Virus record (IMG/VR): IMGVR_UViG_2909288124_000003
Location: 1-52,915 of that record
DNA: 52,915 nucleotides
DNA from: a virus
Taxonomy: Duplodnaviria > Heunggongvirae > Uroviricota > Caudoviricetes
Reading direction: 5' to 3' (one strand)
Made by a program: the position numbers and the translations under genes. Positions 3,591-31,804 of this stretch are shown piece by piece (position 1 is the stretch's first letter; each line of letters opens with the position of its first letter). The notes under the pieces are model-generated. The model made no database searches. It saw only the letters and a program-made list of their open reading frames with translations, and was not told the origin of the DNA.

Positions 3591-6500
3591 TCAGAACACC
3601 CCCGTTAATCGGCCAACCTGCACTCTCAGAACGTTGTTGCCATCCTTGACGCTGATTGTCTGGTTGGTCTGCTTCATGGCTCCCTCCCCAGCTGTCGAAC
3701 CGTAGTTCTCAAACGTCCCGGACTTATCCAGTTTCCAGCCTACTGAGCCAGCCACATAGTTATTCGACTGGATGAAATTGCCGATTTTTGCATTGCTGAT
3801 GGTGCCGTCCTGAATGAACGTTTCCCGGATGAACGTCTGCCCGTTCTGTATCACGAAAGGCAGCGACACAACGGCACCGGCCTGCGTGGTAACAGCAAAA
3901 CGGTCTGCCAGAAAAATTACCTGTGATTGCATGCCGCCAGGTGTATTTTGTACCCCTATGCCCATACCTGCAGCGTAATACTGGCCGTTAGCGGCAACGC
4001 CAACTTTGATGTTGTACATCGCGTTTAGGTTGCCGTTTACATCTGCCACCGCCTGCGCCGTCTGGTTGATGGCTGCAGTCTGCCCGTTCACTGTCACCGT
4101 CAGAGAGTTAATCTTCGTGGCGGATGCCTGGGTGAAATCAGCCAGTGTCTCCGTCAGGTCGGTCGCGTTCGAAACATTCCCACCCGCAGACGCATCAAGC
4201 GTAACCAATGCCCGGGCAACCGCCTGGCTGGTATCGGCAATGGTGGTGTCTATCCGGTCAATTTTTGCGACATTGCCGTTATTGGTGGCAGTCTGGGAAC
4301 GGCGGGAAGTCACCTGCGCCAGGCTGTTCTGGATCACGGCAATTGATGAGTTTTTGACACCGCCGGTCATGCCGTCCATCGACACAGAAATCTCGTCGAT
4401 CTTCACTTCGGCCTGAGCCAGCCCGTCAGCGTTCTCCAGGATGTCTTTCGCCTGCTGCTCGAGTTCGTCGGCATGGTTTTTAATTTCGTCAGCCATGCCA
4501 GCAATTTTTTCGTTGCTGTCCACCGCGTTCTCGATCAGGTCTTTGAACGTTTCCGACTCTTTCATATCCTCCAGAATGTCATTAGTTATTTCGCTGACAT
4601 CTATCGAGGACGTGCCCATGATCCAGTCGGTCCAGTCCCCGGCGTTACCGATACGGTCAATCAGGCGCGCGCGGTACCACTGGCGAACGCCGGCAGGCAT
4701 GGGGCCATGCTGATAATCTGCAGCCGGGTACGGCACCAGGACCAGCAGTTCAGGATTGGCGTAGTCGGCAGTTGTGGCGCGCTGAATCTCTGTATAGGCC
4801 GTGTCGCCTGAGCCATCCGGAAATTTCCAGGTCAGGTCGATATGCCAGACCACATCTTCGGTCGCCAGGAAGTTGAGCGGAGTACCCGGTTTTCCCGTTT
4901 TACCGGAGAGATAAGTTGTTTCACCGTATCCCCATGGTGACGACGTATCCTGCGCATTCAGCGCCCGTACGCGCACGTCATAGCTGCCCGAATAAATGCC
5001 CTGAACCGAGAAACCCTGCGCGCTGGTAACCGGAACGTTTATCCAGTCCCCGTTGTCCTTACGCCACTGGGCAACATACCGGATTGCGCCCTCTACCTTA
5101 TCCCATGACACGTCCAGGCTTGCTACAGTCAGCCCCTGAGACACATGATCGCTCTCAGTCACCACGATATTCTTCGGAGCAGACAGGACGCTTATCGGCG
5201 TGACGGTGATCGGGGGAGACTCGACCCGAACGCCGTCATCGATGTAACGATATTTGTTTGGATCGTGCTGAACGGCCGTAATAGTGAAACCGCCTGTACT
5301 GTCGTCGTTAGCCGCGATTGAGGTGACCCTGAAGTACTGTATTGCGAGGTTATCACTGTCTATCGCCCAAACAGCGCCCGCCACAGGAACCTGACTGAAT
5401 GCCGTAGCCACCGTCACCGTTTTTTTATCGGCGCTCACCGCGCTGATTGTCCGCGTCTGGGCTTTTCCGTCGGGAAGGTTAACCACCAGCCGGTCTTTCG
5501 CCGCGTAGTCTATTTCTCGATCGAGGGTAATTTGGCGGCCGTTGGCCGCGCTTATACGGCCCCCGTTCTCCTTACCAGAGCGGAAAGGATCGGCGACACC
5601 GATAATTTCAGCGGGCAAAGGGATATAACCGTCCAGCCCCACGCCAAACGATACGGTCCCGTCTTTGGCATTGGAGAGCAATACCCAGCGACCGCGTCGG
5701 TGCGCTTCACTTTGCGAGGTGCAGCCGATTGCGGTCAGGGACGTCTGCCGGACGTCGTAACGTTCTACAAGCGCCGAATCGTAAACCCCCTCAACGGTAT
5801 CGCTGTAATGGTTCTGCGGATCGGACCAGGACACCAGGCAGGAGCTGTAGCGATTCTTGTATGAGCCGCCCGCATAAGTAAACAGCCCATCGATAACGTT
5901 TGAGACGTTATAAACCCAGTCAACATCGTCCTGCGGGACGTCTGCCTGGACATAAATCTGATCGTTGCCCCAGAACGTTATTCCACGAAATACCGCGGCG
6001 AGATCGTTAAGTACCTGCCAGGCGTCCTCCTGGCTCTGAATGAAAACGTTGCAGGTGAAACGCGGTTCGGTGCCACCGGCCCCGTCGGAAACCATTTCGT
6101 CACAGTACTGGGCGATTGAATACAGCGCCCACTTATCCACCATGGACGCATCCACGCGCGTGCCCATGCCGTAAATTTCATCCAGAACCAGATCGTAAAA
6201 GATCCAGGCAGGGTTATTGGACCATGCCATTTTGAACCCGCCGGACCATGAACCAGAATAGGTTCGGGTTTTCGGATCGTAATTATCCGGAACCTTAATC
6301 AGCTTGCCTTTTATCTTACAGGTCACTTTCGGCGCGCTGCCGTTGAATTGGCTGCTGTCCACTTCGACATACAGGAGCGCTGTTAAAGGATAACGAAGCT
6401 TGCTGTCGATGACTTCCGCATACGAAAACACCTTGAAGGCGTTAACCAGTTTCGAATTTGATCCGCTGGCATCAGCCGTAATACGCCTGACCCTGACAGA

Positions 6501-16019: not shown

Positions 16020-17966
16020 TTACTGACCAGAGGATTTGGTCATGCCGCGATAGTCCAGCGGCGCCACGCCAGCATCAATACGCACTTTCGTGGCGATACC
16101 ATCAGTGGTGAAGCCTTCCTGCTGATCGATGTATGGCGTGTCGACGCCGTTGAGATAAGCGACCTCAATGGTGTCGGTGCCCTTCGCGGCAGCCAGATAC
16201 CAGGCTTTCGCATCAGCTTCATCCAGACGTGGTTCGGCAATGACTTCTGCAAAGTTCTGGATAGGGTTAACGATCCCGGCATTGATGTCTGCACCTTTAA
16301 CACTGGCCGACTTGATGGTCTGATTTGCCAGAGTTTCCAGGGCGACGGGCACCAGCATGTAGGCCGGACGGATATTCAGGGTTCGCTCCCCCTCCTTCTG
16401 CAGACGCATCAGCTTGCGCGATTCGTCCAGGCTGGCCACAGAAATTGCACCCGAGCTCAGGTTCTTGTGATCGGCATGGAACAGCGCCTTTCCGTCTGAG
16501 AGTTTCGGGTTTTTGGTCAGAATGGCGTAAACCAGATCGCCAATCGTTGCTTTCGCCGCGCGCCCCATCTTCATCGGTACGTCGGTAAGCTGGTTCAGAT
16601 CGTCGTTGATGATCGCCTGGCGAGTTACTGAGAAGATTTCACCATACGTGGCAAGCGCGATGGTTTCGCCTTTGTCACTGGTAGTGATGTACTTGTACTC
16701 AGCCCCTTCGCGAACCTGTCGCAGAGAAGGGAACCCACCCATACCGACACGATGCGCCGTTTTGAAGTCCGACAGCTGGCCTTTTTTGGTCCACTGCTCG
16801 AAGGTTTCCTGCGCCTCGTCCCAGCCCTGAATCAGCGCTTTGTTCGCAACATCAAGCAGAATGTTGCCAAAGTCAGAGGTGCTGTGGGTCAGCGCCAGGC
16901 CAACCATCTGCATCGGGTTGTAGCTGGCCACGCCGATACCTTTTTCTGTCAGGGCCATACGCGCATACTCGCGCAGCGTCATACCGTTATAAACGTTATC
17001 CCGCTCCTGACCTTCGAACCCGGCACGCGCCATCAGTGCCTGGCGAATACCATCCGCGACGAAGTTACCGTTGCCCGCATGAATATGCGGCTGAGTGGTT
17101 TTATTGGACGGCGTGGCCGTTTTACCGAGTTCTGCCAGCAGCAAATCTTTCGCCTTATCGACGGAGCAATCAGGGTCGGCCACACACTGATTCTGCAGTT
17201 CCATGTGCTTATTACCGAACATGGCAAAGAGATCGCCGATAGCGTTAACACGGGTTTTCTGCTCAGCCAACACCTGCGCGCGGATCGCATTTTCATCCGG
17301 TGCCGGGTCTGTTTTTGCCTGCGGTGCCTGAGGCTGGGTAATAACCGGGTCACGCTGGGTAGTGTTGCGCGGCGGGGTGATCATGTTGCGAATGCTTTTT
17401 GGCATTTTTTCAAATTCCTCAATACGTTTTGAATGAATACAGGCCATAGCCTGAAGGGATGGTGTCACCTGGTCGGCAAAACCCAGTTCAAGGCACTCGC
17501 TGCCGTTCATCCAGGTTTCGTCCTCCAGCATTGCCGCAATTTCTTCGGTGGATTTTCCGGTTTTCTGTGCATAAGCCGGGATAAGAACGGATTCAACCTT
17601 GTCGAGAAGATCCGCATAGTCGCGCATATCGCTCGCGTCACCACCAGCAAACCCCCAGGGCTTATGGATCATCATCATCGTGTTTTCAGGCATGATGACC
17701 GGATTGCCTACCATCGCAATCACCGAGGCCATGGAGGCCGCCAGACCGTCGATATGTACGGTAATCGCCGCGCCGTGGTGCTTCAGCGCGTTATAAATAG
17801 CAATTCCGTCGAAGACATCACCACCGGGCGAGTTGATATAAAGGTTGATGTGGGTGACGTCCCCAAGTGCCCGGAGATCATTGACGAACTGTTTCGCCGT
17901 TACGCCCCAGTACCCGATTTCGTCATAAATAAAAATGTCGGCCTCACTGTTATTGCTGGCCTGCAT
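16020..17966 (-). CDS. Prohead protease (ClpP-like) fused to major capsid protein
   Basis: N-terminal ClpP-like region (INSPGGDVFDGIAIYNAL, MASVIAM) and C-terminal HK97-fold capsid region. Start trimmed to MQASNNSE just after the portal stop. Confidence 0.75.
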   Translation of the reverse strand: MQASNNSEADIFIYDEIGYWGVTAKQFVNDLRALGDVTHINLYINSPGGDVFDGIAIYNALKHHGAAITVHIDGLAASMASVIAMVGNPVIMPENTMMMIHKPWGFAGGDASDMRDYADLLDKVESVLIPAYAQKTGKSTEEIAAMLEDETWMNGSECLELGFADQVTPSLQAMACIHSKRIEEFEKMPKSIRNMITPPRNTTQRDPVITQPQAPQAKTDPAPDENAIRAQVLAEQKTRVNAIGDLFAMFGNKHMELQNQCVADPDCSVDKAKDLLLAELGKTATPSNKTTQPHIHAGNGNFVADGIRQALMARAGFEGQERDNVYNGMTLREYARMALTEKGIGVASYNPMQMVGLALTHSTSDFGNILLDVANKALIQGWDEAQETFEQWTKKGQLSDFKTAHRVGMGGFPSLRQVREGAEYKYITTSDKGETIALATYGEIFSVTRQAIINDDLNQLTDVPMKMGRAAKATIGDLVYAILTKNPKLSDGKALFHADHKNLSSGAISVASLDESRKLMRLQKEGERTLNIRPAYMLVPVALETLANQTIKSASVKGADINAGIVNPIQNFAEVIAEPRLDEADAKAWYLAAAKGTDTIEVAYLNGVDTPYIDQQEGFTTDGIATKVRIDAGVAPLDYRGMTKSSGQ

Positions 17967-17979
17967 GCGGAACCACGAA

Positions 17980-19479
17980 TTACTTTTTGCGCTGGCTTTC
18001 GGACGGTGGCGCGCCCGGTTCTTTGGCTTCGGCACTGGTGCCTCCTTTATCATTGGCGGGGTCGGTGTCAAACACCAGGCCCTGTTCACGGTTCTCGTCA
18101 ACCTCAGCTTTACGGCGTGACTTAACATCATCCGGGTTGCGACCGCTGGCACGTATCCAGTCGGATTCAGTAGCAGCACCGCCGCGGATCTGCGTTTTCC
18201 AGGCATTCGCTTCTTTAACGGGATCAATCCACGGCATAACGGGCCCCGAATAAACCGCGTTATAAAGCGAGTCCATATCAATGCCTCTCGGCAGCTTGAT
18301 TTCTCCGGCAGCAATAGCCATCTTGAGCCAGGCTCGGTACATGGGCCGGGTCACTGAACCGATGAACCAGTCCTGAAGAATCAGATAGCCGTCGGTTGAC
18401 TCGACAAGCTCCTGCCGCTGGGCACTGTACGTTCCGTTGTAGTTTCTGGATGTGCTGGAAAAGCTGAGGCGACTGCCGGCGGACACGGCACGCAGCTGTC
18501 CGTTACGAAACGATTCGAGGTTAGGGTTCGGGCGATCGGATTTAATCATCCCGATTTCTTCCCCGGCCTGCAGTTCGTCATAGAGCATACCGGGCTGAAT
18601 CATCAGCTCGCGGTCATCGCTGCTTGAATCAGAATCGAAGCTCTGTCCGTCGCCTTTTTTGATATACATGCCGAGTGCCGCAGCAATTCTGGCAGCAGTA
18701 AGCTCCGAGTCCTCGTATTCTTTCAGCGCGCTCAGACGCATCAGAACACCAGACAAAAGAGACGTTCCGCGGGTCTGGTGCAGGCGTCGGGTGAATTTGA
18801 GATGCAGCATGTTCTCTGCATCTATCTCTTTGGTATCAAACTGACGCCCGGATACTGGCAGGCTTTTATAGACCTGATATTTTTTCGGGCGTCCCCAGTT
18901 ATCGACAAAAACGCCCTGATTGAGCTGGGTGGCAGCATCGCTGTTCATCGGCACAAAGTCCGGCTCCAGCGCTTCCAGCCAGAACGGCACGCCAGCAACC
19001 GGCTGAAGACCATTTCCGGTACCGCGAACCAGCTGAGCAAATACCTCACCGTCCCGGAGCCACGTTCGCAGCATCAGCCGCTCCAGCATTGGGCGGGTAA
19101 ACTGGGTTGTGACATCTGGCCTTACGGACCATTCGCCCCACTTTCGGCGGATATCAGTGGCCAGCTTTTTAGCGATCTTCCCGTTACTCAGCATCGGATG
19201 CGGTTCAACTATGATGCCCTTCGCACCCACCACCCTTTCTTCCAGCTTGTCGAAAACGCCGATCACCAGATCGTGGTTGTTATCCAGCCAGCGCGCCTGC
19301 TGCCTCAGCGAAACCGCCCCCATCTGGCTGAGCTGATCGGCTGAACGATTTTCCTTCTGGGCTTTGTGGGTACGCGTTTGCTTTACCGCCTCATACGCTT
19401 TAATAACTGCGCGGGCACGCAGGCGTGAGGCTTTCCAGCCTGGTGAAAACAGGCCAATCGCATCATCTAAAAAACTCAT
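17980..19479 (-). CDS. Portal protein (lambda B-like)
   Basis: 499 aa located between W and the protease-capsid gene. Confidence 0.8.
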   Translation of the reverse strand: MSFLDDAIGLFSPGWKASRLRARAVIKAYEAVKQTRTHKAQKENRSADQLSQMGAVSLRQQARWLDNNHDLVIGVFDKLEERVVGAKGIIVEPHPMLSNGKIAKKLATDIRRKWGEWSVRPDVTTQFTRPMLERLMLRTWLRDGEVFAQLVRGTGNGLQPVAGVPFWLEALEPDFVPMNSDAATQLNQGVFVDNWGRPKKYQVYKSLPVSGRQFDTKEIDAENMLHLKFTRRLHQTRGTSLLSGVLMRLSALKEYEDSELTAARIAAALGMYIKKGDGQSFDSDSSSDDRELMIQPGMLYDELQAGEEIGMIKSDRPNPNLESFRNGQLRAVSAGSRLSFSSTSRNYNGTYSAQRQELVESTDGYLILQDWFIGSVTRPMYRAWLKMAIAAGEIKLPRGIDMDSLYNAVYSGPVMPWIDPVKEANAWKTQIRGGAATESDWIRASGRNPDDVKSRRKAEVDENREQGLVFDTDPANDKGGTSAEAKEPGAPPSESQRKK

Positions 19480-22290: not shown

Positions 22291-22387
22291 TTTTTGAACG
22301 ATTCGACATGTTGCGAAAATGGCCTCTAATTAAATCAAAGACCTGCGCACATGATGATGATGACCCTGGATCCGAAAAACTAGCCGT

Positions 22388-22412
22388 TTCCCGCGAGCGC
22401 GCCGCCCCGTGG
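22388..22412 (-). other. cos-like site (cosN candidate)
   Basis: Minus strand GGGGCGGCGCGCTCGCGGG resembles the lambda cohesive end GGGCGGCGACCTCGCGGG, about 100 bp upstream of the small terminase gene. Confidence 0.45.
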
Positions 22413-22558
22413 TAGGCAACCCCGCCGGGAGGACCCATAAGAAAACACAGGTCCGACCGCCGTTTTGAATTCTCTTCTAAACGACTCTAGTTTGATTTGA
22501 GTATGCAATACGCGTAAAAAAGCCCCGCATAGGCGAGGCTGGAATCAGACAGGGGGGA

Positions 22559-23461
22559 TTAAGACTGGATATTCCAAATCATTGCGTTACCGTTATGATT
22601 TTCAATGATTTTTGCCAGTGGTGCTCCACCAAAAGAATGCATGTAGCTGTGATGTATAGTCAAAACCAAATCTTGAAGTACTTGATCACTTTCAAGTTCG
22701 GTAACATTCAACCCAATTTTCTGCGCCTTATCAAAATGAATATGACGCGAGTGGGTATAGGTTGTGTGATGGTTGTTTAACTCTGAACAAACATGTGTTG
22801 CTTTTGATTCTGCCTCAGGATCATTATCAAACATGCCTGTCATAAGCCAATGCTTAACAATCTCATTTGCCCATTTGATTGCTTTCTCACACTCGCCGAT
22901 GATCGTCGGGTTTAGCTTTTGAAGAATGAACTGCCACATCTGAACAGCTGCGGGATTTTGAAAAATTTCCGTCTGCGCACGATTCCATTCTTCAATGATG
23001 GCATGGGTGGAGAAACCGTTGAACTGAGGATCAATTGGGCCAATGTTGGACTGTTTACCCATGATGATTTCATTGGCACAACATGCAAGCATAGTTCCGC
23101 AGGACATTGAAATCATAGGAACAATTGCTCTGATGTTAGTTCCAAACTTCGACCTTAAGTAATGCCCGATTGATTCCAAAGCGGCAATATCACCACCTGG
23201 AGTATGAAGTATCAAATCCAACCCTTTTGATACATCTAAACCATTGATGGCTGTCATCAACCCGTTCTTATCATCATCAGTCATCTGAGTAAGATGGCGT
23301 ACTTCTGCACCACCATGCTGTAACCACCCTGAGTAATATGTGATTACATTTCTTCCAGTATGATTCGAAAGTTGAGATAAGTATTTACGGCGAACCTCAT
23401 CCATAGGACTTTTATGGGCGAGAGCCGTTATCTCGCCCAGTACGTCGCTCCAATTAGGCAT
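22559..23461 (-). CDS. Clp-fold serine protease-like protein (SDH/SppA-like), moron
   Basis: 300 aa with LILHTPGGDIAALESIG and MISMSCGTMLACCA motifs. AT-rich and set between Rz and cos (the lambda bor position). Confidence 0.45.
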   Translation of the reverse strand: MPNWSDVLGEITALAHKSPMDEVRRKYLSQLSNHTGRNVITYYSGWLQHGGAEVRHLTQMTDDDKNGLMTAINGLDVSKGLDLILHTPGGDIAALESIGHYLRSKFGTNIRAIVPMISMSCGTMLACCANEIIMGKQSNIGPIDPQFNGFSTHAIIEEWNRAQTEIFQNPAAVQMWQFILQKLNPTIIGECEKAIKWANEIVKHWLMTGMFDNDPEAESKATHVCSELNNHHTTYTHSRHIHFDKAQKIGLNVTELESDQVLQDLVLTIHHSYMHSFGGAPLAKIIENHNGNAMIWNIQS

Positions 23462-23464
23462 AAA

Positions 23465-23665
23465 TCAGTACGTGTAAAGTTGATGACTTGTAGTTTGGTT
23501 TTGCTTCGATTGTGTAGCGGTACCTTGTGAGTACCAAACACCTGTGTTTCCACTCGTACTAGTTTGCTGTGCCATTACACGAGAAGCGAAGTTGTTAACA
23601 GTTTCACCAGTCAACATTTCTGCCGGTTTGATATTGTAAACATCGTAGAACTCAGCTGGGGTCAT
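23465..23665 (-). CDS. Small hypothetical protein co-transcribed with the protease-like gene
   Basis: 66-aa ORF with RBS AGGAG, ending 3 nt before the downstream ATG. Q/T/S-rich C-terminus. Confidence 0.4.
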   Translation of the reverse strand: MTPAEFYDVYNIKPAEMLTGETVNNFASRVMAQQTSTSGNTGVWYSQGTATQSKQNQTTSHQLYTY

Positions 23666-23754
23666 AATGATAGCTCCTTTTATAGCGCTACATATAGTGC
23701 CTGTGCCAAGGGGGACATACTATATGTGCCATTGTTGTCATATTTAAATGTGCA

Positions 23755-23776
23755 AAAAGCCTCAAAAGAGGCTTGA
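23755..23776 (-). terminator. Rho-independent terminator after the Rz/Rz1 lysis cassette (bidirectional hairpin)
   Basis: AGCCTC-TTTT-GAGGCT hairpin followed by TTTTT on the minus strand. Confidence 0.45.
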
Positions 23777-24035
23777 AAAAGATGCAAAAATACTATCTAT
23801 GACGTGACTATAGCTACTTACCCACAGTTTATACAAGCCAAAAATGCTAAATTCAGATAATCCTATTCGCTGAAAAACTACACAAAAGCTACGTTCATCT
23901 TGTCATTAGATAACGTCAGTAACTTTCACTGGATCTAAGCCATTGGTGAAAAAGCTAATTGCATGATGAAGCACTGTAATGTAGCAGTTGAGGTTGTTAA
24001 ATGAGAATCACCCTAACAATGTCAACGGACATTAT

Positions 24036-24572
24036 TCATTTTCGTAACTTCTCAATCTCTCGTATACCCGCCAGGTTATTGTTGCCCTTCTCAATAACAG
24101 CCAGCAAAGGTTCAATCCAGAGGACGGCCTGGCAATACGTCATTGAGCTGGCGGCAGCGGTACTATCATCGGTTGCGTTAGTGTTCCCGGTATCGGGGTG
24201 CATTGCGCTGGCACGTAAACGGTACGCGTATTTGAGCAGCCCACCAGCGACATCAGCAGGAACAGGCAGATCACAGGTCTTTTCACGTCGGAGAATCTCC
24301 CGGTATTCGATGACAGTTTTCTCAGTACCGGCATCGATCAGCGAGTTAAGGCGGTTGGCGTTCTCTGCTATCTGGTTAAACCGATTGAAGTTGAAAGCCT
24401 GTGTAGTTATCACCGTCGCCTGCAGCGCGTTATCATTACGTAATACCCGATTCTCACTCTGTTCTGTTTCAAGAGCTGAGCGGCTACGAACCAGTAATAC
24501 GCTAAGCACTGCAATAATGATTACGACAGCCACCAGCAGAACCGCAACAATCGTAATTTTTCTGGGTTTCAT
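24036..24572 (-). CDS. i-spanin Rz
   Basis: N-terminal transmembrane helix then coiled coil; contains an embedded out-of-frame lipoprotein ORF. Confidence 0.7.
   Translation of the reverse strand: MKPRKITIVAVLLVAVVIIIAVLSVLLVRSRSALETEQSENRVLRNDNALQATVITTQAFNFNRFNQIAENANRLNSLIDAGTEKTVIEYREILRREKTCDLPVPADVAGGLLKYAYRLRASAMHPDTGNTNATDDSTAAASSMTYCQAVLWIEPLLAVIEKGNNNLAGIREIEKLRK
24140..24334 (-). CDS. o-spanin Rz1 (embedded in Rz in an alternate frame)
   Basis: 64-aa ORF with lipobox LVGCS and a proline-rich mature part, wholly inside the Rz gene. Confidence 0.55.
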   Translation of the reverse strand: MPVLRKLSSNTGRFSDVKRPVICLFLLMSLVGCSNTRTVYVPAQCTPIPGTLTQPMIVPLPPAQ

Positions 24573-25144
24573 CAGAATACCCCCGGAACTGATACCGGAA
24601 TGCCAGGGTTAAGCGGCCCGAGTCCATCCCCCAGAACCTGAGGTTTCTCTGCCCACAGGCAAACTTCACGCTCAATCTCACGCCTCGTGATTAAACCCTT
24701 CCACTGTTTGTCACCAGCATAGATCCAGCGCCGCAGTTGTTCGCATGCGCCTTTCGAATCACCCTGGTTGATTTTTCGTAACAGTGTGGAGGTTTTGAAG
24801 TTTCCCGCGCCTACGTTATACGCAAATGAGTACAGCGCCCCTCTCATCGTTTCGGGGATCGGAGCATTGATATATGGGTTAATCTGTCGGGCGACAATAT
24901 TCAGGTCTTTATCCAGCAGCGCCTGGCACTCTGCTTTGGTGTAGGTCTTGCCGAGGATAATATCTTTACCAGTATGGCCCCAGCATACAGTCCACACTCC
25001 AACAACATCCCGATAAGGCTGATAGCGTACACCTTCAAGGCCATCATTACCCGTTGGGCCAGTAATCAACGCCGCAGCGATAGCAATAGCGCCAGCGGGT
25101 ATCGCTGCAATAACGCTATTCTTCAGCTTTGGTGGCATAGCCAT
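24572..25144 (-). CDS. SAR endolysin (phage 21 R-like lysozyme, GH24)
   Basis: Gly/Ala-rich N-terminal signal-anchor-release helix followed by a lysozyme region ([11 protein letters not shown]) resembling phage 21 R. Confidence 0.8.
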
Positions 25145-25394
25145 TGCGCCGATCCTCCCGTTCTTTCCAGCGGAAATACCAGTTCACTGCACAGGTAATA
25201 ACAGTGCATGCGATACCGACAATAATTGCCCAGTCGCTCAGGCTTAACCCTGCAATTCTGTCGGCCAACATCCAGGACACCTCTTTTGCTGTTTTTGCTG
25301 TTTCGGCATATGCCTTCGCTGATACACCGCAGCCGGTCAGCGTGGTGCCTGTTCCATATGAAAGTCTGCTGTAAATGGTGCTCATTCTGGTCAT
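25116..25394 (-). CDS. Holin (pinholin S21-like)
   Basis: Small membrane protein with a C-terminus like S21 (YF(R/K)x(K/R)EDRR), overlapping the endolysin start. Confidence 0.6.
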
Positions 25395-26210: not shown

Positions 26211-26285
<75 letters not shown>

Positions 26286-26288
26286 ATA

Positions 26289-26364
<76 letters not shown>

Positions 26365-26366
26365 AG

Positions 26367-26440
26367 TGGTCCGCCACCGGAGCCTCGAACCCCGTACCAC
26401 AACACCTGGGTTGCCGCTCTTCCCGATGAGCTAGTGGCGG
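26367..26440 (-). tRNA. tRNA-like sequence with non-canonical anticodon arm (possible pseudo-tRNA or unusual tRNA)
   Basis: Canonical acceptor, D and T arms and CCA, but the anticodon stem pairs only with a 6-nt loop (CCAGGU) in my manual fold; 74 nt. Confidence 0.4.
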
Positions 26441-26442
26441 TC

Positions 26443-26519
26443 TGGTGGCCCTTGCTGGACTTGAACCAGCGACCGGGCGATTATGAGTCGCACGCTCTAA
26501 CCAACTGAGCTAAAGGGCC
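26443..26519 (-). tRNA. tRNA with CAU anticodon, tRNA-Ile2 (lysidine) type
   Basis: Anticodon loop CUCAUAA; sequence resembles E. coli ileX-type tRNA rather than initiator or elongator Met. Confidence 0.65.
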
Positions 26520-26644: not shown

Positions 26645-27595
26645 ATGATTTTTATTAAAAACGGCAATAGCTTTGATCGCATTAATGACTGGACAGAAAT
26701 TCAAGCTCGGGAAAGCTATCATTCCAGGCTGGAACTGACCGATCAACAATTATCCGATGTTTTTGGTTATTATGATGACCTCCCGGAAGAAATCCCGTGT
26801 GGCAAGTCGAGCTGTCGAACAGGCCATAAAAAAGGGTTTCTTGTTCTTACTGAGGATGGTCTGGAGACGAACCTGGGTCACGTTTGCGGTACAAAAGTCT
26901 TCGGTATAGCATTTGAAAACCTAGCCACTGACCTCGAGAAAAAGGCAAATTTCCACAGATATCTAACAGCCCTCAAGGAAGCCAAGAAAAATATTTTTCT
27001 CCATTACCAAGCAAAAGCCAAAATCGAAGCCAGTGAACCATCATTAGAATGGGTCGCACATAAAATTTTAGATTTAAGAGATTCTAAAGTAGTTGGCCGA
27101 GCCGGGAGTCAAGCTTTGAAACGTATGGCTGCTTTAGGAGATGGAAAAGTTTTACTTCCCAGAAGGAAAACCAAGGAAGAAATGCAGTTGTCGAATGTTA
27201 TGTCTCAAAAACCTTCCGATAACGAAGATGAAAATGCTGAGGATAATGTAAAACCACAATTCATCGACGAAGTAATTGGCATTGTTCGTAATCCTGAATG
27301 CCTCCTCAACGATTATAACATAGCGCTAATCTTCGAAAGAGATATTCGCCTTGTGCTGGAAGAACTCAATAATTGCAATCCTGACGATATTCCTGAGAAG
27401 AAGGTCATGTCATTAGGATTAAAAGTTTCCAGGCTGAATGAAAGATTTCAATTCCTTCAGGATCGTTTTGAGAAAGCATGTATATATCTCACAAAGGAAA
27501 ACTTTAAACCTTTAAATCATCAACTACATTTGAAAAAATCAATTAGCAATAAAGATAAGGCCCTTTTCAGTTCTTTCGTTAACTCGCTGCCATAA
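26645..27595 (+). CDS. Hypothetical 316-aa protein, AT-rich cargo gene antisense to the late operon
   Basis: Clean ORF with RBS AGGGAAG, low GC relative to the phage backbone, no recognisable motifs, ends at a bidirectional terminator shared with the late leader. Confidence 0.5.
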   Translation: MIFIKNGNSFDRINDWTEIQARESYHSRLELTDQQLSDVFGYYDDLPEEIPCGKSSCRTGHKKGFLVLTEDGLETNLGHVCGTKVFGIAFENLATDLEKKANFHRYLTALKEAKKNIFLHYQAKAKIEASEPSLEWVAHKILDLRDSKVVGRAGSQALKRMAALGDGKVLLPRRKTKEEMQLSNVMSQKPSDNEDENAEDNVKPQFIDEVIGIVRNPECLLNDYNIALIFERDIRLVLEELNNCNPDDIPEKKVMSLGLKVSRLNERFQFLQDRFEKACIYLTKENFKPLNHQLHLKKSISNKDKALFSSFVNSLP

Positions 27596-27703: not shown

Positions 27704-28540
27704 CTAAATTTCGTCACCTTCTTCGCCTAAACTGGTTGCAGATTGAAATTCTCTTGCGGCGTTTCCCTCCTCCTGCTGACAAATGCTTACCAGCGCCTCA
27801 AGAAACGGTTTCCAGTTGCGAGTCCATGTTCTGACGTGCAGATCCGGAACGCGCTTCAGTATCACTTTATAGGCTGCGGTAGACGGCACCGCAGAAAATC
27901 CATTTCCGCTGCAGCGCTCGCAGGTTTTAAACACCGGCGCGCCGCGCTCGCTTGTGGCCTTGCGGTCTAGAACCTCGCCTTTACCGCCGCAACGACAACG
28001 GGCGCTGATCGTTCCCTTGCCTTCGCAAGCATCACAGACCGCCGGTACAACCTCTGTTACCTCCATCCACTGCTCCCAGTCAGACGGTCGAACAGCACGA
28101 GAGCGGCAGGCCCAGTATGGAGCTTTACCCCATGGGTACGAAACCTTGCGGGTAATCTGTTCGCGGGTTGTTCGTCCGGTACCACTGCAGCTGTGACACG
28201 TCACGCTTGTAGCCGCCGAACGTGAATAATCAGCAAAGGCAAATTGTGCCAACATCTGCATGCACCATCCGAACTGCCCACCAGCTGCTTTGCGAACATT
28301 CTTCGGTGCGACATCCATCGCATATCGCGCCAGCGCCTGAACTGCGAGCTGTTCATCCGTTTTGCTGATTCCCGCTTTACCGAAGAACGCCGCCAGTCCG
28401 AAGCGCGCACGGCTGCTGGTGGTGCCAATTGCCGCCATTACATCTGTTCCTGTAAGGCGGTCCGGAGAGGTTCCTTTCACGTCGTCGCTGATGTGCATAC
28501 CCTGAGGGCTAAAGTGTTTTAGTGAAGCTTCAAGTTTCAT
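27704..28540 (-). CDS. Antitermination protein Q (lambda Q family, 278 aa with extra Cys-rich insert)
   Basis: Matches lambda Q blocks: FSP..., L(S/T)GTDVMAA, FAYADY(C/S)RSAAT, C..C.GTGR, P(A/S)(S/T)AAY. Confidence 0.75.
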   Translation of the reverse strand: MKLEASLKHFSPQGMHISDDVKGTSPDRLTGTDVMAAIGTTSSRARFGLAAFFGKAGISKTDEQLAVQALARYAMDVAPKNVRKAAGGQFGWCMQMLAQFAFADYSRSAATSVTCHSCSGTGRTTREQITRKVSYPWGKAPYWACRSRAVRPSDWEQWMEVTEVVPAVCDACEGKGTISARCRCGGKGEVLDRKATSERGAPVFKTCERCSGNGFSAVPSTAAYKVILKRVPDLHVRTWTRNWKPFLEALVSICQQEEGNAAREFQSATSLGEEGDEI

Positions 28541-28894: not shown

Positions 28895-28901
28895 AGTGAC
28901 C

Positions 28902-29516
28902 TCACACCAGTGCGGCTTTAGCTTTGGCGTAACGTTCACGGCGGTCTTTAATGCCGTTCTGCCCGCCGTTAATAATCTGCGTGACGCGTTCCACATCCCC
29001 CGAATAGAGGAGACAACCGCGTAACGTGAAGTACCATGCCGCCGAACGGGCCGCGTGTCGCTCTTGCGTCAATAGTTCCGGAGTGCTCACAAGGTCAAGC
29101 TTCAGCGCCGTACCGCATTTGGTGTAGTTCTCACGACCAGTGATTTGCAGCAGGCCACGACCGCGATATTTCCAGCCATCACCCTGACTGTTATTCCCCA
29201 TGCGGTCACCATAAACCAGATTGGCTATTTGTGGCTGGTGAGCGACCTGTTTACCATCGACACGCCCCAACATTTCGCACTGATACGTCGTCAGGCGCTT
29301 ACCGAAGGTTTTCTTCAGCCCTTCAACCGAGTAGTTAAAGTTCTCTACCAGCGAGGTAAAGCCATTGGATTCATGCCCAACTTGTGCAATGAACATGGCC
29401 TGATCGTTAGCTGCTGTGATTCCAAACTCTTTCATTGCAGCATCAATGTGCGGAAACCAGCGCGCAGCTAACCCGGCGCTAATGCCAGCCGCCTTTTGAA
29501 ATTGTGATTGGTTCAT
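28902..29516 (-). CDS. Endolysin, GH19 chitinase-like lysozyme
   Basis: 204 aa with lysozyme-like blocks (FIAQVGHESNGF, GRGLLQITG, AAWYF), following two small membrane proteins. Confidence 0.65.
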   Translation of the reverse strand: MNQSQFQKAAGISAGLAARWFPHIDAAMKEFGITAANDQAMFIAQVGHESNGFTSLVENFNYSVEGLKKTFGKRLTTYQCEMLGRVDGKQVAHQPQIANLVYGDRMGNNSQGDGWKYRGRGLLQITGRENYTKCGTALKLDLVSTPELLTQERHAARSAAWYFTLRGCLLYSGDVERVTQIINGGQNGIKDRRERYAKAKAALV

Positions 29517-29797
29517 TAGTGCCTCAGATGATCAACCAGGCGCGCAACGTTGCCTCTGACGGCCACTAGCACGGAAAGGAAAATAATGTTGGCCCCAATA
29601 GTGGCCCATGACGAATGAGGATAAATCCCGCACAGGTAGGCCAGAGGCACAGCGCTGTACGTGACAGTAATTAGCCAGGCTAAACGCGAAACCCACGGAC
29701 GATGGCGTGAATCACCACGACGATAAAACATCAGGGTAATCACCACCCCGACGCATAGAAGAGCGTTGATTGTTGCCGATGGGTCATTTAGTACCAC
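29516..29797 (-). CDS. Holin-like membrane protein (3 predicted TM helices)
   Basis: 93 aa with three hydrophobic segments, immediately upstream of the endolysin. Confidence 0.5.
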   Translation of the reverse strand: MVLNDPSATINALLCVGVVITLMFYRRGDSRHRPWVSRLAWLITVTYSAVPLAYLCGIYPHSSWATIGANIIFLSVLVAVRGNVARLVDHLRH

Positions 29798-30170
29798 CAG
29801 AACCTCCCCGGCGCGTTATCAGCGCCACCAAAGAGCCGACATCCTGGTTGTTCAGGAACGTCAGGATTTTGACAGCTAAAGCCGAAACGATTACGGCACC
29901 GATGGCATCCAGAGGCTTATCACTGTAACCAGTCCAGTCAGCCAGCTTTGAACCAACCAGCCCTGAGCAGATGATCCCGGCGATGTAGGACACGACAAAA
30001 TACGCCAGCCGGCGCGCTGCACTCAGGTCCGCGGCGGTTGCAATGTAAAATACAGCCACGGCAAATGCGCCAAACACCACGCCGTAATCGGTTCCGGAAA
30101 CAAATCCATAGACACTGGCTCCCGTCAGGACACCACCAGCCAGCCCAGTACCGGAAATCGGATCGGACAT
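29784..30170 (-). CDS. Holin-like membrane protein
   Basis: 128 aa, Gly/Ala-rich with multiple hydrophobic helices; first gene of this lysis cassette. Confidence 0.45.
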   Translation of the reverse strand: MSDPISGTGLAGGVLTGASVYGFVSGTDYGVVFGAFAVAVFYIATAADLSAARRLAYFVVSYIAGIICSGLVGSKLADWTGYSDKPLDAIGAVIVSALAVKILTFLNNQDVGSLVALITRRGGSGGTK

Positions 30171-30324
30171 TTAGCCCCCTCTTTATTGCTGTGAGTCCTC
30201 TCAGAATGAGGGGAATAAAAAAGGTCACCAGCGGCGACCTAGAGGTGAGTACTATTTTTTACATTAGGGTGATAAGAGGTCATATTTAATTTAAGCCTCA
30301 TAGAGGCTAGGTGTAAAGAACAAG

Positions 30325-31074
30325 TTATTTCCATTTAAATGAATCAATAACTTTCTGAATTATATCACGCACAACCTCTAATGTTTCACGTGTAACATCA
30401 ACCTTGCCGTAACTACCATTACCCATTGTGCAACCGAAACTAGAACCAGACAAATGACTAATAACAAGTACACCACCCTCAGATTTTATTCCACCATCAT
30501 CAATGGGTTGTAACTCAATCAATTTACCTCGTTTCTTTCCTAATACTCTATCTTCAATATGGTGTGATGAGTCTCTGACATGAATTAAATCTGGAAAAGC
30601 CTCACCCATCATCATTTTAATTTTAGATATTCTACTTTGGACTTCTGGTTCCTCAGGAAGAATATTAATTATTTTTTCGATTGTATCCAATGAATATAAA
30701 AATGATTTCGCATATATAAAAGGCAAGCTATGTTGCAAATAACTTGGTAGTTTCCCTTCATTTAATTTTTTTTGATTAAGGATTGATTCTACTTTTTTAC
30801 TTAACTTATCATGATTTTCAAAAACACTTAAGTCAAACTCATGTTCTATAGATTTTTGAATTTGAATCCTTTCCTCTCTGTCTTCCAACCATTCTCTTCT
30901 AGATTCAAAAGCGCCTTGTACATTCGCTATTTCTCTATCAAAAAATAAAAGTGACACAAATGCTTCATTAAAACAAGACTCTAACTGACTGATAATACGC
31001 TCAACATTTCGAGACCATTGGCTATCATCACTGTCGATCCAACTCCCAGGTTTAACTAACTCCATAATTTCCAT
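30325..31074 (-). CDS. Hypothetical 249-aa protein, AT-rich moron directly downstream of the Q-like gene and its terminator
   Basis: Clean ORF, low GC, no recognisable motifs, flanked by terminator-like hairpins. Confidence 0.5.
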   Translation of the reverse strand: MEIMELVKPGSWIDSDDSQWSRNVERIISQLESCFNEAFVSLLFFDREIANVQGAFESRREWLEDREERIQIQKSIEHEFDLSVFENHDKLSKKVESILNQKKLNEGKLPSYLQHSLPFIYAKSFLYSLDTIEKIINILPEEPEVQSRISKIKMMMGEAFPDLIHVRDSSHHIEDRVLGKKRGKLIELQPIDDGGIKSEGGVLVISHLSGSSFGCTMGNGSYGKVDVTRETLEVVRDIIQKVIDSFKWK

Positions 31075-31138
31075 TTCGCCTCCTGATTATCATCATTTAA
31101 CTCAATTTCTCATCTAATATGATAACCAAAAAGGACAC

Positions 31139-31161
31139 AAAAAACCCGCTCAATGGCGGGT
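31139..31161 (-). terminator. Rho-independent terminator downstream of the Q-like gene (tR'-like)
   Basis: Minus strand CCCGCCATTGAGCGGG followed by TTTTTTG. Confidence 0.5.
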
Positions 31162-31211
31162 TCTTGATGTTTGTTGCTCAGTTCGCTTTAACGTCCCGAG
31201 CCTACCACAAT

Positions 31212-31790
31212 TTAAGCACTTTCTTGCTCACTCTGCAACTTAAATCTGTCGCTATTTGTGCCGAATGCGTCACAAACTGGAGCGTACAGGATCGATTCTG
31301 CAAGACTTAGCCAAGTGTCAATGCGTCGACGACAGGTGATCAGCGGCCAGTCAGGATGTTTAGCCTGCAGTTCATTGGCCATCTGCAGCTTGCTCTTGCG
31401 TAGGCGATGGCGGTCGACAATCACGCTATAGAGCGATCGGTAGTCATCATTCATCAGTACAGAAGCAATGACACCATCCACTAACAACCCTTCTTCGTCT
31501 GAACAGAACGCCAGGCCGCTTTTATTTTTGCTGTTGAGGATTTCACGAAGGTACGCTTCAAGTTCAGGTTTGGTGATGCCTGATTTCTTCATACGGCGAA
31601 GCGCATCATTGATAGCTGTCTTGGTGATTTTCCCGGATGCCAGAAGCTGGTTAAACATGTTCCCACCACTACCACCGCCGATATAAGACCAGCGGCCCCA
31701 CATGCGCAACTTACCCTGTATCCAGATGCTTTCCAGAGTACGAAGACGAACCATTTCACCAGATTTACCAACTTCAGAAGGATTAATCAT
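31212..31790 (-). CDS. Putative second antitermination protein (Q-like, different family from the one at 27704..28540)
   Basis: 192-aa basic protein in the canonical Q position (after the nin-like genes, before a terminator and a lysis cassette). The family assignment is from my recollection of 82-type Q motifs, not a search. Confidence 0.4.
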   Translation of the reverse strand: MINPSEVGKSGEMVRLRTLESIWIQGKLRMWGRWSYIGGGSGGNMFNQLLASGKITKTAINDALRRMKKSGITKPELEAYLREILNSKNKSGLAFCSDEEGLLVDGVIASVLMNDDYRSLYSVIVDRHRLRKSKLQMANELQAKHPDWPLITCRRRIDTWLSLAESILYAPVCDAFGTNSDRFKLQSEQESA

Positions 31791-31804
31791 TTAGCGTTCT
31801 CCAC

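Follow-up and report, generated by a model that had tools for sequence, protein, structure and literature searches.

The described system closest to the locus reported here is presumably FS_HP_SDH_sah of the DefenseFinder collection, which combines a small hypothetical protein with an SDH_sah protein (Pfam family PF01972, now named SDH_protease) on an enterobacterial mobile element. It reportedly acted against phages when cloned from a phage-inducible chromosomal island (PICI) by Fillol-Salom et al. (Cell 2022), and we know of no mechanism for it. Here, we describe a pair of similar composition in a DNA stretch of 52,915 nucleotides (IMG/VR record IMGVR_UViG_2909288124_000003, positions 1 to 52,915; the whole stretch is referred to as the window). 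The window derives from a lambdoid prophage of Escherichia coli, and several complete E. coli chromosomes match the segment at 100% identity. The pair consists of an open reading frame (ORF) for a small protein of 66 amino acids (aa) at positions 23465-23665 and a protease ORF of 300 aa at positions 22559-23461, both on the minus strand and separated by 3 nt between stop and start (23462-23464). An initial annotation of the window had described an AT-rich, two-gene pair of these sizes and this spacing, and both the coordinates and the low GC content (41.5%) were confirmed. We interpret the locus as a mobile two-gene accessory cassette (a moron), most likely with a defence or toxin-antitoxin (TA)-like function and with neither a virion nor a lysis function, a reading to which we assign a probability of roughly 0.55.

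With respect to gene content, the pair corresponds to what we take FS_HP_SDH_sah to be, comprising a PF01972-domain protein and an adjacent, co-oriented small hypothetical protein; we treat membership in that system as a lead, not as a result. The text of the DefenseFinder preprint does not name FS_HP_SDH_sah. The two also differ in their carrier: FS_HP_SDH_sah was reportedly found on a PICI, whereas the window pair resides on a lambdoid prophage, in the slot between the Rz lysis gene and cos. A search for PICI contexts among E. coli homologues found none, and all of the contexts inspected (7 of 7) were lambdoid prophages. While we read the pair type itself as known and mechanistically uncharacterised, the present analysis adds a newly described partner family, the candidate catalytic residues and the conserved leader.

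The large protein is an SDH-family serine protease with a ClpP/SppA fold. In the profile search it matched PF01972 (SDH_protease) with 81.2 bits, well above the gathering cutoff of 31.3 bits (E = 8.4e-23, residues 22-255), and PHROG 11747 (function unknown) over nearly its full length. Against the NCBIfam equivalog NF047768 (Clp_like_SDH) it scored 95.9 bits with a cutoff of 250, and it is therefore not a member of this equivalog, although PGAP gives it that name. An AlphaFold2 (AF2) model built with 29 diverse homologues had a mean predicted local distance difference test score (pLDDT) of 92.8 and displayed the ClpP/crotonase fold. The two ClpP/SppA-like motifs pointed out in the initial annotation, LILHTPGGDIAALESIG and MISMSCGT, are present at residues 83 and 116, respectively. 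The nucleophile candidate is Ser120, the serine of M-S-C-G-T: in the alignment it falls on the catalytic serine of ClpP (AASMG) and of NfeD/1510-N (AASAGT), and it is invariant in both the 29 diverse homologues and a set of 31 paired ones. Asp144, His237, His240, His270, His271 and Lys284 are invariant in the closer protease subfamily, and Asp144 and the four histidines are candidate catalytic partners of Ser120. The description of the PF01972 family gives a Ser-Asp-His triad, in that order.

Compared with the self-compartmentalising serine proteases ClpP, SppA (S49) and NfeD/1510-N, the cassette protease has an additional helical C-terminal half (residues ~150-300), and structural similarity to these proteins is modest (template modelling score of ~0.4 on the query). 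Unlike ClpP, it has no histidine at the position of His122, where Asp144 is conserved instead, and unlike SppA and NfeD it has no lysine at their lysine position. It is associated with neither an AAA+ partner nor a membrane anchor. Its N-terminal sequence MPNW is conserved across phyla, from E. coli to Firmicutes, and for this reason we regard the start of the 300-aa protein as the right one and the PGAP start, which yields 281 aa, as too short. In the RefSeq records NZ_CP017220.1 and NZ_CP041448.1, PGAP places the protease start 19 codons late and leaves the 66-aa ORF unannotated; for diverged alleles, such as that of E. coli Nissle 1917 (WP_001704134.1), it does annotate the small ORF. The protease family is large, with more than 8000 close homologues that fall into 350 clusters at E < 1e-30. 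Identity between the E. coli and Dehalobacter proteins is still 55%, and ratios of nonsynonymous to synonymous substitution rates (dN/dS) of 0.01-0.02 for three closer alleles, dS being too saturated for an 82%-identical allele, indicate strong purifying selection.

The ClpP fold is also that of phage prohead proteases, and the initial annotation had named homology to a head-maturation protease or scaffold of the adjacent morphogenesis module as the finding that would overturn its reading of the locus. Weak matches of this kind exist: the cassette protease hit PHROG 53 (head maturation) at E = 6e-5 and the head-maturation profile NF045542 at 2.8e-4. These matches were limited to ~65 residues around the active site, and the NF045542 score of 20.9 bits is far below the cutoff of 120 bits. 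Moreover, positions 16020-18035 of the prophage code for a ClpP-like prohead protease fused to the major capsid protein, which matched NF045540 at 997 bits and shares 27% identity with the cassette protease over 55 residues only. Since the phage has this fusion, the cassette protease is not its head protease. In addition, cos and a terminator separate the cassette gene from the head genes, the gene is absent from related phages, homologues occur in nonphage contexts, and another phage backbone with the same cassette has an S49 peptidase of the lambda gpC type. As far as sequence evidence allows, a head-maturation role is refuted, and we consider it extremely improbable. A 499-aa ORF in the window overlaps the 3' end of a longer protease/capsid fusion ORF (16020-18314). 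The portal gene (17980-19479 in the window; 3681-5204 in L001) is flagged by RefSeq as an incomplete pseudogene in strain FAM21845.

The second component, the 66-aa protein, is a genuine and fast-evolving partner of the protease in most but not all of the loci examined across several phyla. When a small ORF was required to be co-oriented, 45-90 aa long and to end between -35 and +100 nt of the protease start, it was found at the expected position in 51 of 58 distinct loci, compared to 63 of 270 control long ORFs from the same loci (23%; Fisher 2e-20). This strict criterion replaced a looser one, because the latter had given a background of 51%. Several of the seven misses do have a small ORF, with a non-ATG start or an extension. 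The small ORF is under strong purifying selection, with dN/dS values of 0.05-0.13 (dS >1, saturated) against alleles whose proteases are 82-97% identical. Partnership with the protease, as proposed in the initial annotation, is thus borne out by co-occurrence, by selection and by the motifs described below.

Whereas the sequences of the small proteins diverge fast, they keep a common plan. An N-terminal helix motif (hydrophobic-x-x-x-F/Y-x-x-hydrophobic-G/N-I/L) is followed in most clades by a block resembling F-K-K/R-C-S-I/V-L, then by a strand-like V-x-Y-S with further Ser/Thr residues, and finally by a variable tail, which is rich in Ser, Thr and Gln in the window protein. The plan recurs in Enterobacteria, Pseudomonas, Methylomonas, Dehalobacter, uncultured bacteria and Gordonia phage BeeGee (there as an unannotated ORF), and the motifs are common to Proteobacteria, Firmicutes, Actinobacteria and Bacteroidota phages. 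In BeeGee (L100, ~3830-4000), the unannotated ORF of ~58 aa (MANPASHLEQ...HVRYSTSATR) lies directly upstream of gene 31, which encodes an SDH protease homologue, and has a V-x-Y-S-x-S motif like the E. coli partner. The small protein matched PHROG 25714 at 3.9e-44, but no relative was found in Pfam, NCBIfam, PADLOC or PDB, and a profile built from the enterobacterial small proteins recovered the distant partners only marginally. In an AF2 model of a protease-linker-partner fusion computed from a paired alignment, the partner had helices at residues 3-10 and 23-32 and a disordered tail. Its single beta strand was V43-W-Y-S46, with a pLDDT of ~62, which is weak evidence. As a lone strand needs a pairing partner, the model hints, at low confidence, that the small protein may bind the protease by beta-augmentation.

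The architecture of the pair resembles type II TA operons, in which a small upstream gene nearly abuts a larger enzyme gene and the 5' region contains an inverted repeat; the modelled combination of a structured N-terminal part with a disordered tail in the small protein would be a further likeness. This raises the alternative that the cassette serves addiction or stabilisation only, i.e., that it is a proteolytic TA module which keeps the prophage or element in its host and has no role against other phages. The 3-nt gene spacing, the conserved inverted repeat immediately 5' of the ribosome-binding site (RBS), as in autoregulated type II operons, and the TA genes found as neighbours in several genomes are all consistent with this idea. 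So is an E. coli metagenome contig (L015, 7608-8735), in which an intact 69-aa partner ORF accompanies an N-terminally truncated protease, represented by a 244-aa product and a 51-aa fragment. Against it, some proteases occur without a recognisable small ORF, neither cassette protein has homology to any toxin or antitoxin family known so far, and searches of Pfam and PDB detected no DNA-binding domain and no antitoxin family match for the small protein. We consider addiction alone unlikely. Since many TA modules also defend against phages, this alternative excludes a defence function only in part.

The region upstream of the small ORF has a leader that travels with the cassette. An alignment of 21 distinct upstream regions from several insertion sites, belonging to proteases 62-97% identical, revealed a conserved order of sigma-70-like promoter, hairpin with U-run, inverted repeat, RBS and ATG; the alignment statistics below refer to these 21 sequences. 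The promoter-like element P1 (23807-23836, minus strand) has a -35 box TTGTAT, an 18-nt spacer and a -10 box TATAGT. It recurs as TTGnnA-17/18-TATAGT/TATATT at the same place in the diverged upstream regions, including those of cassettes at other insertion sites, and probably acts as the cassette promoter. A generic promoter scan, by its own criteria, did not list P1. Another promoter-like sequence, TTTAAA-18-TATAGT, which overlaps the inverted repeat, was rejected as the main promoter, as its -35 and -10 boxes are not conserved in other cassettes whereas P1 is.

Between P1 and the genes, a terminator-like hairpin with the sequence AAGCCTC-TTTT-GAGGCTT is followed by a U-run (23757-23774, minus strand). 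Changes on both sides were observed in 6 of its 7 pairs, and 86% of the alignment cells were paired. The hairpin is also part of the minimum-free-energy fold of the leader (z = -2.6), and its T-run was under the threshold of the terminator scan. The initial annotation had placed here a terminator closing the lysis cassette, and this claim has to be abandoned: because the hairpin accompanies the cassette, in conserved form, wherever else the latter was found inserted, it belongs to the cassette leader. It lies ~260 nt downstream of the spanin stop; in cassettes located between a Q antiterminator and a holin gene, a separate upstream terminator precedes it.

The inverted repeat described in the initial annotation just upstream of the RBS, with the 9-nt cores ACATATAGT (23690-23698) and ACTATATGT (23719-23727), was located as such and found to be both conserved and covarying. 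Its full arms, GCACATATAGT and ACTATATGTAG, are separated by a 20-nt spacer (23688-23729, minus strand). In the alignment, 88% of cells were paired, as opposed to 29-53% when the partner was slid; 3 pairs covary, and each arm has six invariant positions. Of 66 distinct loci, 28 had a degenerate form of the motif (A.AT.T.GT-N12-32-AC.A.AT.T) in front of the small ORF, among them loci from Methylomonas, Shewanella phage MuM16-1 and a Dehalobacter genome. Elsewhere in 1.8 Mb searched on both strands, the sole other match was one overlapping hit in L050 that reuses the second arm of the repeat. That the repeat is kept across such distant hosts argues that its reader is cassette-encoded or that it works as an RNA stem; from its sequence, a DNA operator and an mRNA hairpin appear equally possible. 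Closest to the small ORF, a putative RBS (AAGGAGC; 23673-23679, minus strand) was read from the sequence, and the purine-rich block before the ATG is conserved in the alignment. A scan of 22300-24200 against Rfam gave only sub-threshold chance matches.

At the other end, the terminator scan identified an intrinsic-terminator-like hairpin with a T-run after the protease gene (22511-22540, minus strand, with the hairpin at 22521-22540; 8 pairs, 6 of them G-C), which closes the cassette. Homology to copies of the cassette in a lambda-like Nu1/A backbone starts at position ~22504, just past this hairpin (hits H32-H39 to other-backbone copies begin at query position 205). The cassette measures ~1.35 kb (~22505-23860) and lies between the spanin gene and cos. 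Its GC content of 41.5% contrasts with 55.7% in the terminase flank and 50.8% in the lysis flank. Between the spanin stop and the cassette promoter, ~170 nt of very AT-rich (~36% GC), noncoding DNA (23860-24035) contain a promoter-like TTAACA-16-TACAGT; this stretch is a constant companion of the present allele in E. coli genomes and is not common to cassettes at other sites.

As proposed in the initial annotation, the position corresponds to that of the bor-type morons, with the lysis genes upstream and the cos sequence GGGCGGCGCGCT at 22396-22407, between the cassette and the terminase genes. Separate promotion, likewise proposed, is supported by the conserved P1 and by the cassette's own terminator-like hairpin. 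Together with the deviant GC content and the presence or absence of the cassette among relatives, these predicted elements give the locus the attributes of a moron. Like lambda bor and lom, which are morons in Hendrix's definition, it is an independent, AT-rich and variably present unit that comprises a promoter-like element, genes and a terminator and is located between the lysis genes and cos. Unlike them, it carries a protease pair and no outer-membrane lipoprotein, is oriented on the late-operon strand, and has a leader with a hairpin, a U-run and a conserved inverted repeat.

The location within the late transcription unit, between Rz and cos here and between Q and holin elsewhere, bears on a further alternative, namely that the protease is a phage-benefit factor which is made during the lytic cycle of the resident phage and degrades host immune or regulatory proteins (counter-defence or host takeover). 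In lambdoid late transcription, Q-modified polymerase would read through the cassette hairpins. Also in keeping with this alternative, the deposited phage genomes with a homologue (7 of 50,697) are of kinds that we presume to be temperate. Such a role seems quite unlikely to us: pairs are also found outside phages, where they share chromosomal islets with TA or restriction genes, and at the outer prophage edge next to an integrase; its own conserved promoter-like element and terminator suggest expression in the lysogen; and the cassette is absent from most relatives of the phage.

The distribution of the pair shows that it is mobile among accessory slots, both in prophages and in other mobile elements. 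The same allele was found in at least two phage backbones with different terminases, and only some related prophages have the cassette. In others with a homologous spanin gene, the Rz-cos slot contains different cargo, in one case three hypothetical genes and in another a DUF6236 gene; a joined-flanks search among E. coli genomes found no empty site at which the Rz and cos flanks are adjacent. In prophages of Enterobacter and E. coli, homologous pairs occupy the interval from the Q antiterminator to the holin; one of these prophages, in Nissle 1917, has its terminase genes in common with the window. Further pairs adjoin an integrase in a Pseudomonas prophage, occupy the edge of a Methylomonas mobile element, and are present in a Klebsiella prophage and a prophage-like Dehalobacter region. 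In total, 80 of 5426 complete E. coli genomes contained a homologous pair, always in the chromosome. Neighbours of homologous pairs include HicAB in Porphyromonas phages, Fic and YafQ-type genes, and an MmeI-like restriction-modification fusion; the latter two settings, in chromosomal islets, represent nonphage neighbours, about which the initial annotation had asked.

A last alternative is that the pair is a lysogenic-conversion gene set unrelated to phages, in which the protease and a small substrate alter host physiology, for instance by peptide processing or stress proteolysis. It would share its moron position with lambda bor, and the extreme conservation of the protease suggests a conserved target. 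Nevertheless, on reading the sequence neither protein has a visible signal peptide or membrane segment, the distribution is patchy and tied to mobile elements and not to lineage or niche, and the neighbours are defence and TA genes. We therefore regard lysogenic conversion of this type as very unlikely.

Taken together, the partner, the leader and the neighbours point to a defence or TA-like function. The initial annotation had likewise suggested that the locus could be a toxin or defence module rather than a virion component; the second half of that statement holds, as the large protein is not the head protease, while the evidence for the first, and for an anti-phage role in particular, is circumstantial, the mobile-element, TA and restriction contexts being consistent with it. 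Several observations weigh against this reading. Neither protein had a match in PADLOC-DB v2 even at E <= 1, and a full-text search found no open-access main text on PF01972/SDH_sah proteases in phage defence. Three distant loci have the protease but no recognisable small ORF, which speaks against an obligatory antitoxin. In the fusion model the small protein reached a pLDDT of only ~60, and the catalytic partners of Ser120 are candidates. The Tai (tail assembly inhibition) system, which came up in the literature, is unrelated; its paper does not contain protease terms.

If the cassette is a defence module, it could operate as follows. In the lysogen, the pair would be expressed at a low level from the cassette's own promoter, damped by the leader hairpin, and the inverted repeat, functioning as an operator or as a stem in the mRNA, would allow autoregulation. 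The small protein would bind the protease via its V-x-Y-S strand, serving as its pseudosubstrate, as an inhibitor or as bait. Infection by a phage, or loss of a labile partner, would then free or redirect the protease, which would cleave phage or host proteins and block phage production (abortive infection). These steps are inferred, whereas the parts of the cassette and their conservation were observed. A protease that is held inactive until infection is the idea embodied by Lit and by the CHAT- and Lon-type anti-phage effectors. Unlike these, which have unrelated folds and sensors, the cassette combines a ClpP fold with a ~60-aa partner and has no recognisable sensor domain.

In its most far-reaching form, this proposal would make the family a proteolytic switch that regulates itself and spans phyla. 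A co-evolving pseudosubstrate of ~60 aa, docked via V-x-Y-S, would restrain an ATP-independent protease of the ClpP fold; infection by a phage would release the protease and lead to abortive infection, and the level would be set by the leader, with its promoter, attenuating hairpin and a repeat read by a cassette-encoded factor. As a joint claim we regard this as tentative and, on balance, doubtful.

The genes around the cassette, from the holin through the portal, are all encoded on the minus strand. Upstream lie the lysis genes, i.e., a holin (25116-25394), a lysozyme with the Pfam domain Phage_lysozyme (24572-25144) and a spanin-like protein of 178 aa (24036-24572), whose gene contains an embedded lipobox ORF of 64 aa. 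Beyond cos, a DUF1441 small-terminase-like gene is followed by the large terminase (TerL) and the portal. Between the Q antiterminator and the holin, a cluster of tRNA genes (26211-26519, minus strand) comprises Gly(UCC), Thr(UGU), an aberrant tRNA-like element whose anticodon was called as 2 nt, and a tRNA with a CAT anticodon, which ARAGORN assigns to Met and PGAP to Ile. A 316-aa ORF between the tRNAs and the Q gene (26645-27595, plus strand), without a Pfam match and listed as hypothetical in RefSeq, is a candidate for another moron. Directly upstream of the Q gene (27704-28540), a second late-regulation and lysis module (~28900-31800; 14603-17491 in L001) encodes a DUF1133 Q-like protein, two holins and a GH19 endolysin. 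The presence of two tandem antiterminator-plus-lysis modules suggests that the prophage is mosaic or recombinant.

For lambdoid prophages, our results show an exchange of the same accessory cassettes between the Rz-cos and Q-holin slots. If the defence reading is right, a protease-based defence pair resides on a prophage in ~1.5% of complete E. coli genomes, among them that of the probiotic strain Nissle 1917. Handles on its mechanism are the true start of the protease, the partner (which is unannotated in some RefSeq records) with its V-x-Y-S motif, the candidate catalytic residues and the conserved leader. A proteolytic switch of the kind outlined above, if true, would supply a mechanism for a defence family that has none and would represent a new class of protease-based TA or abortive-infection systems.

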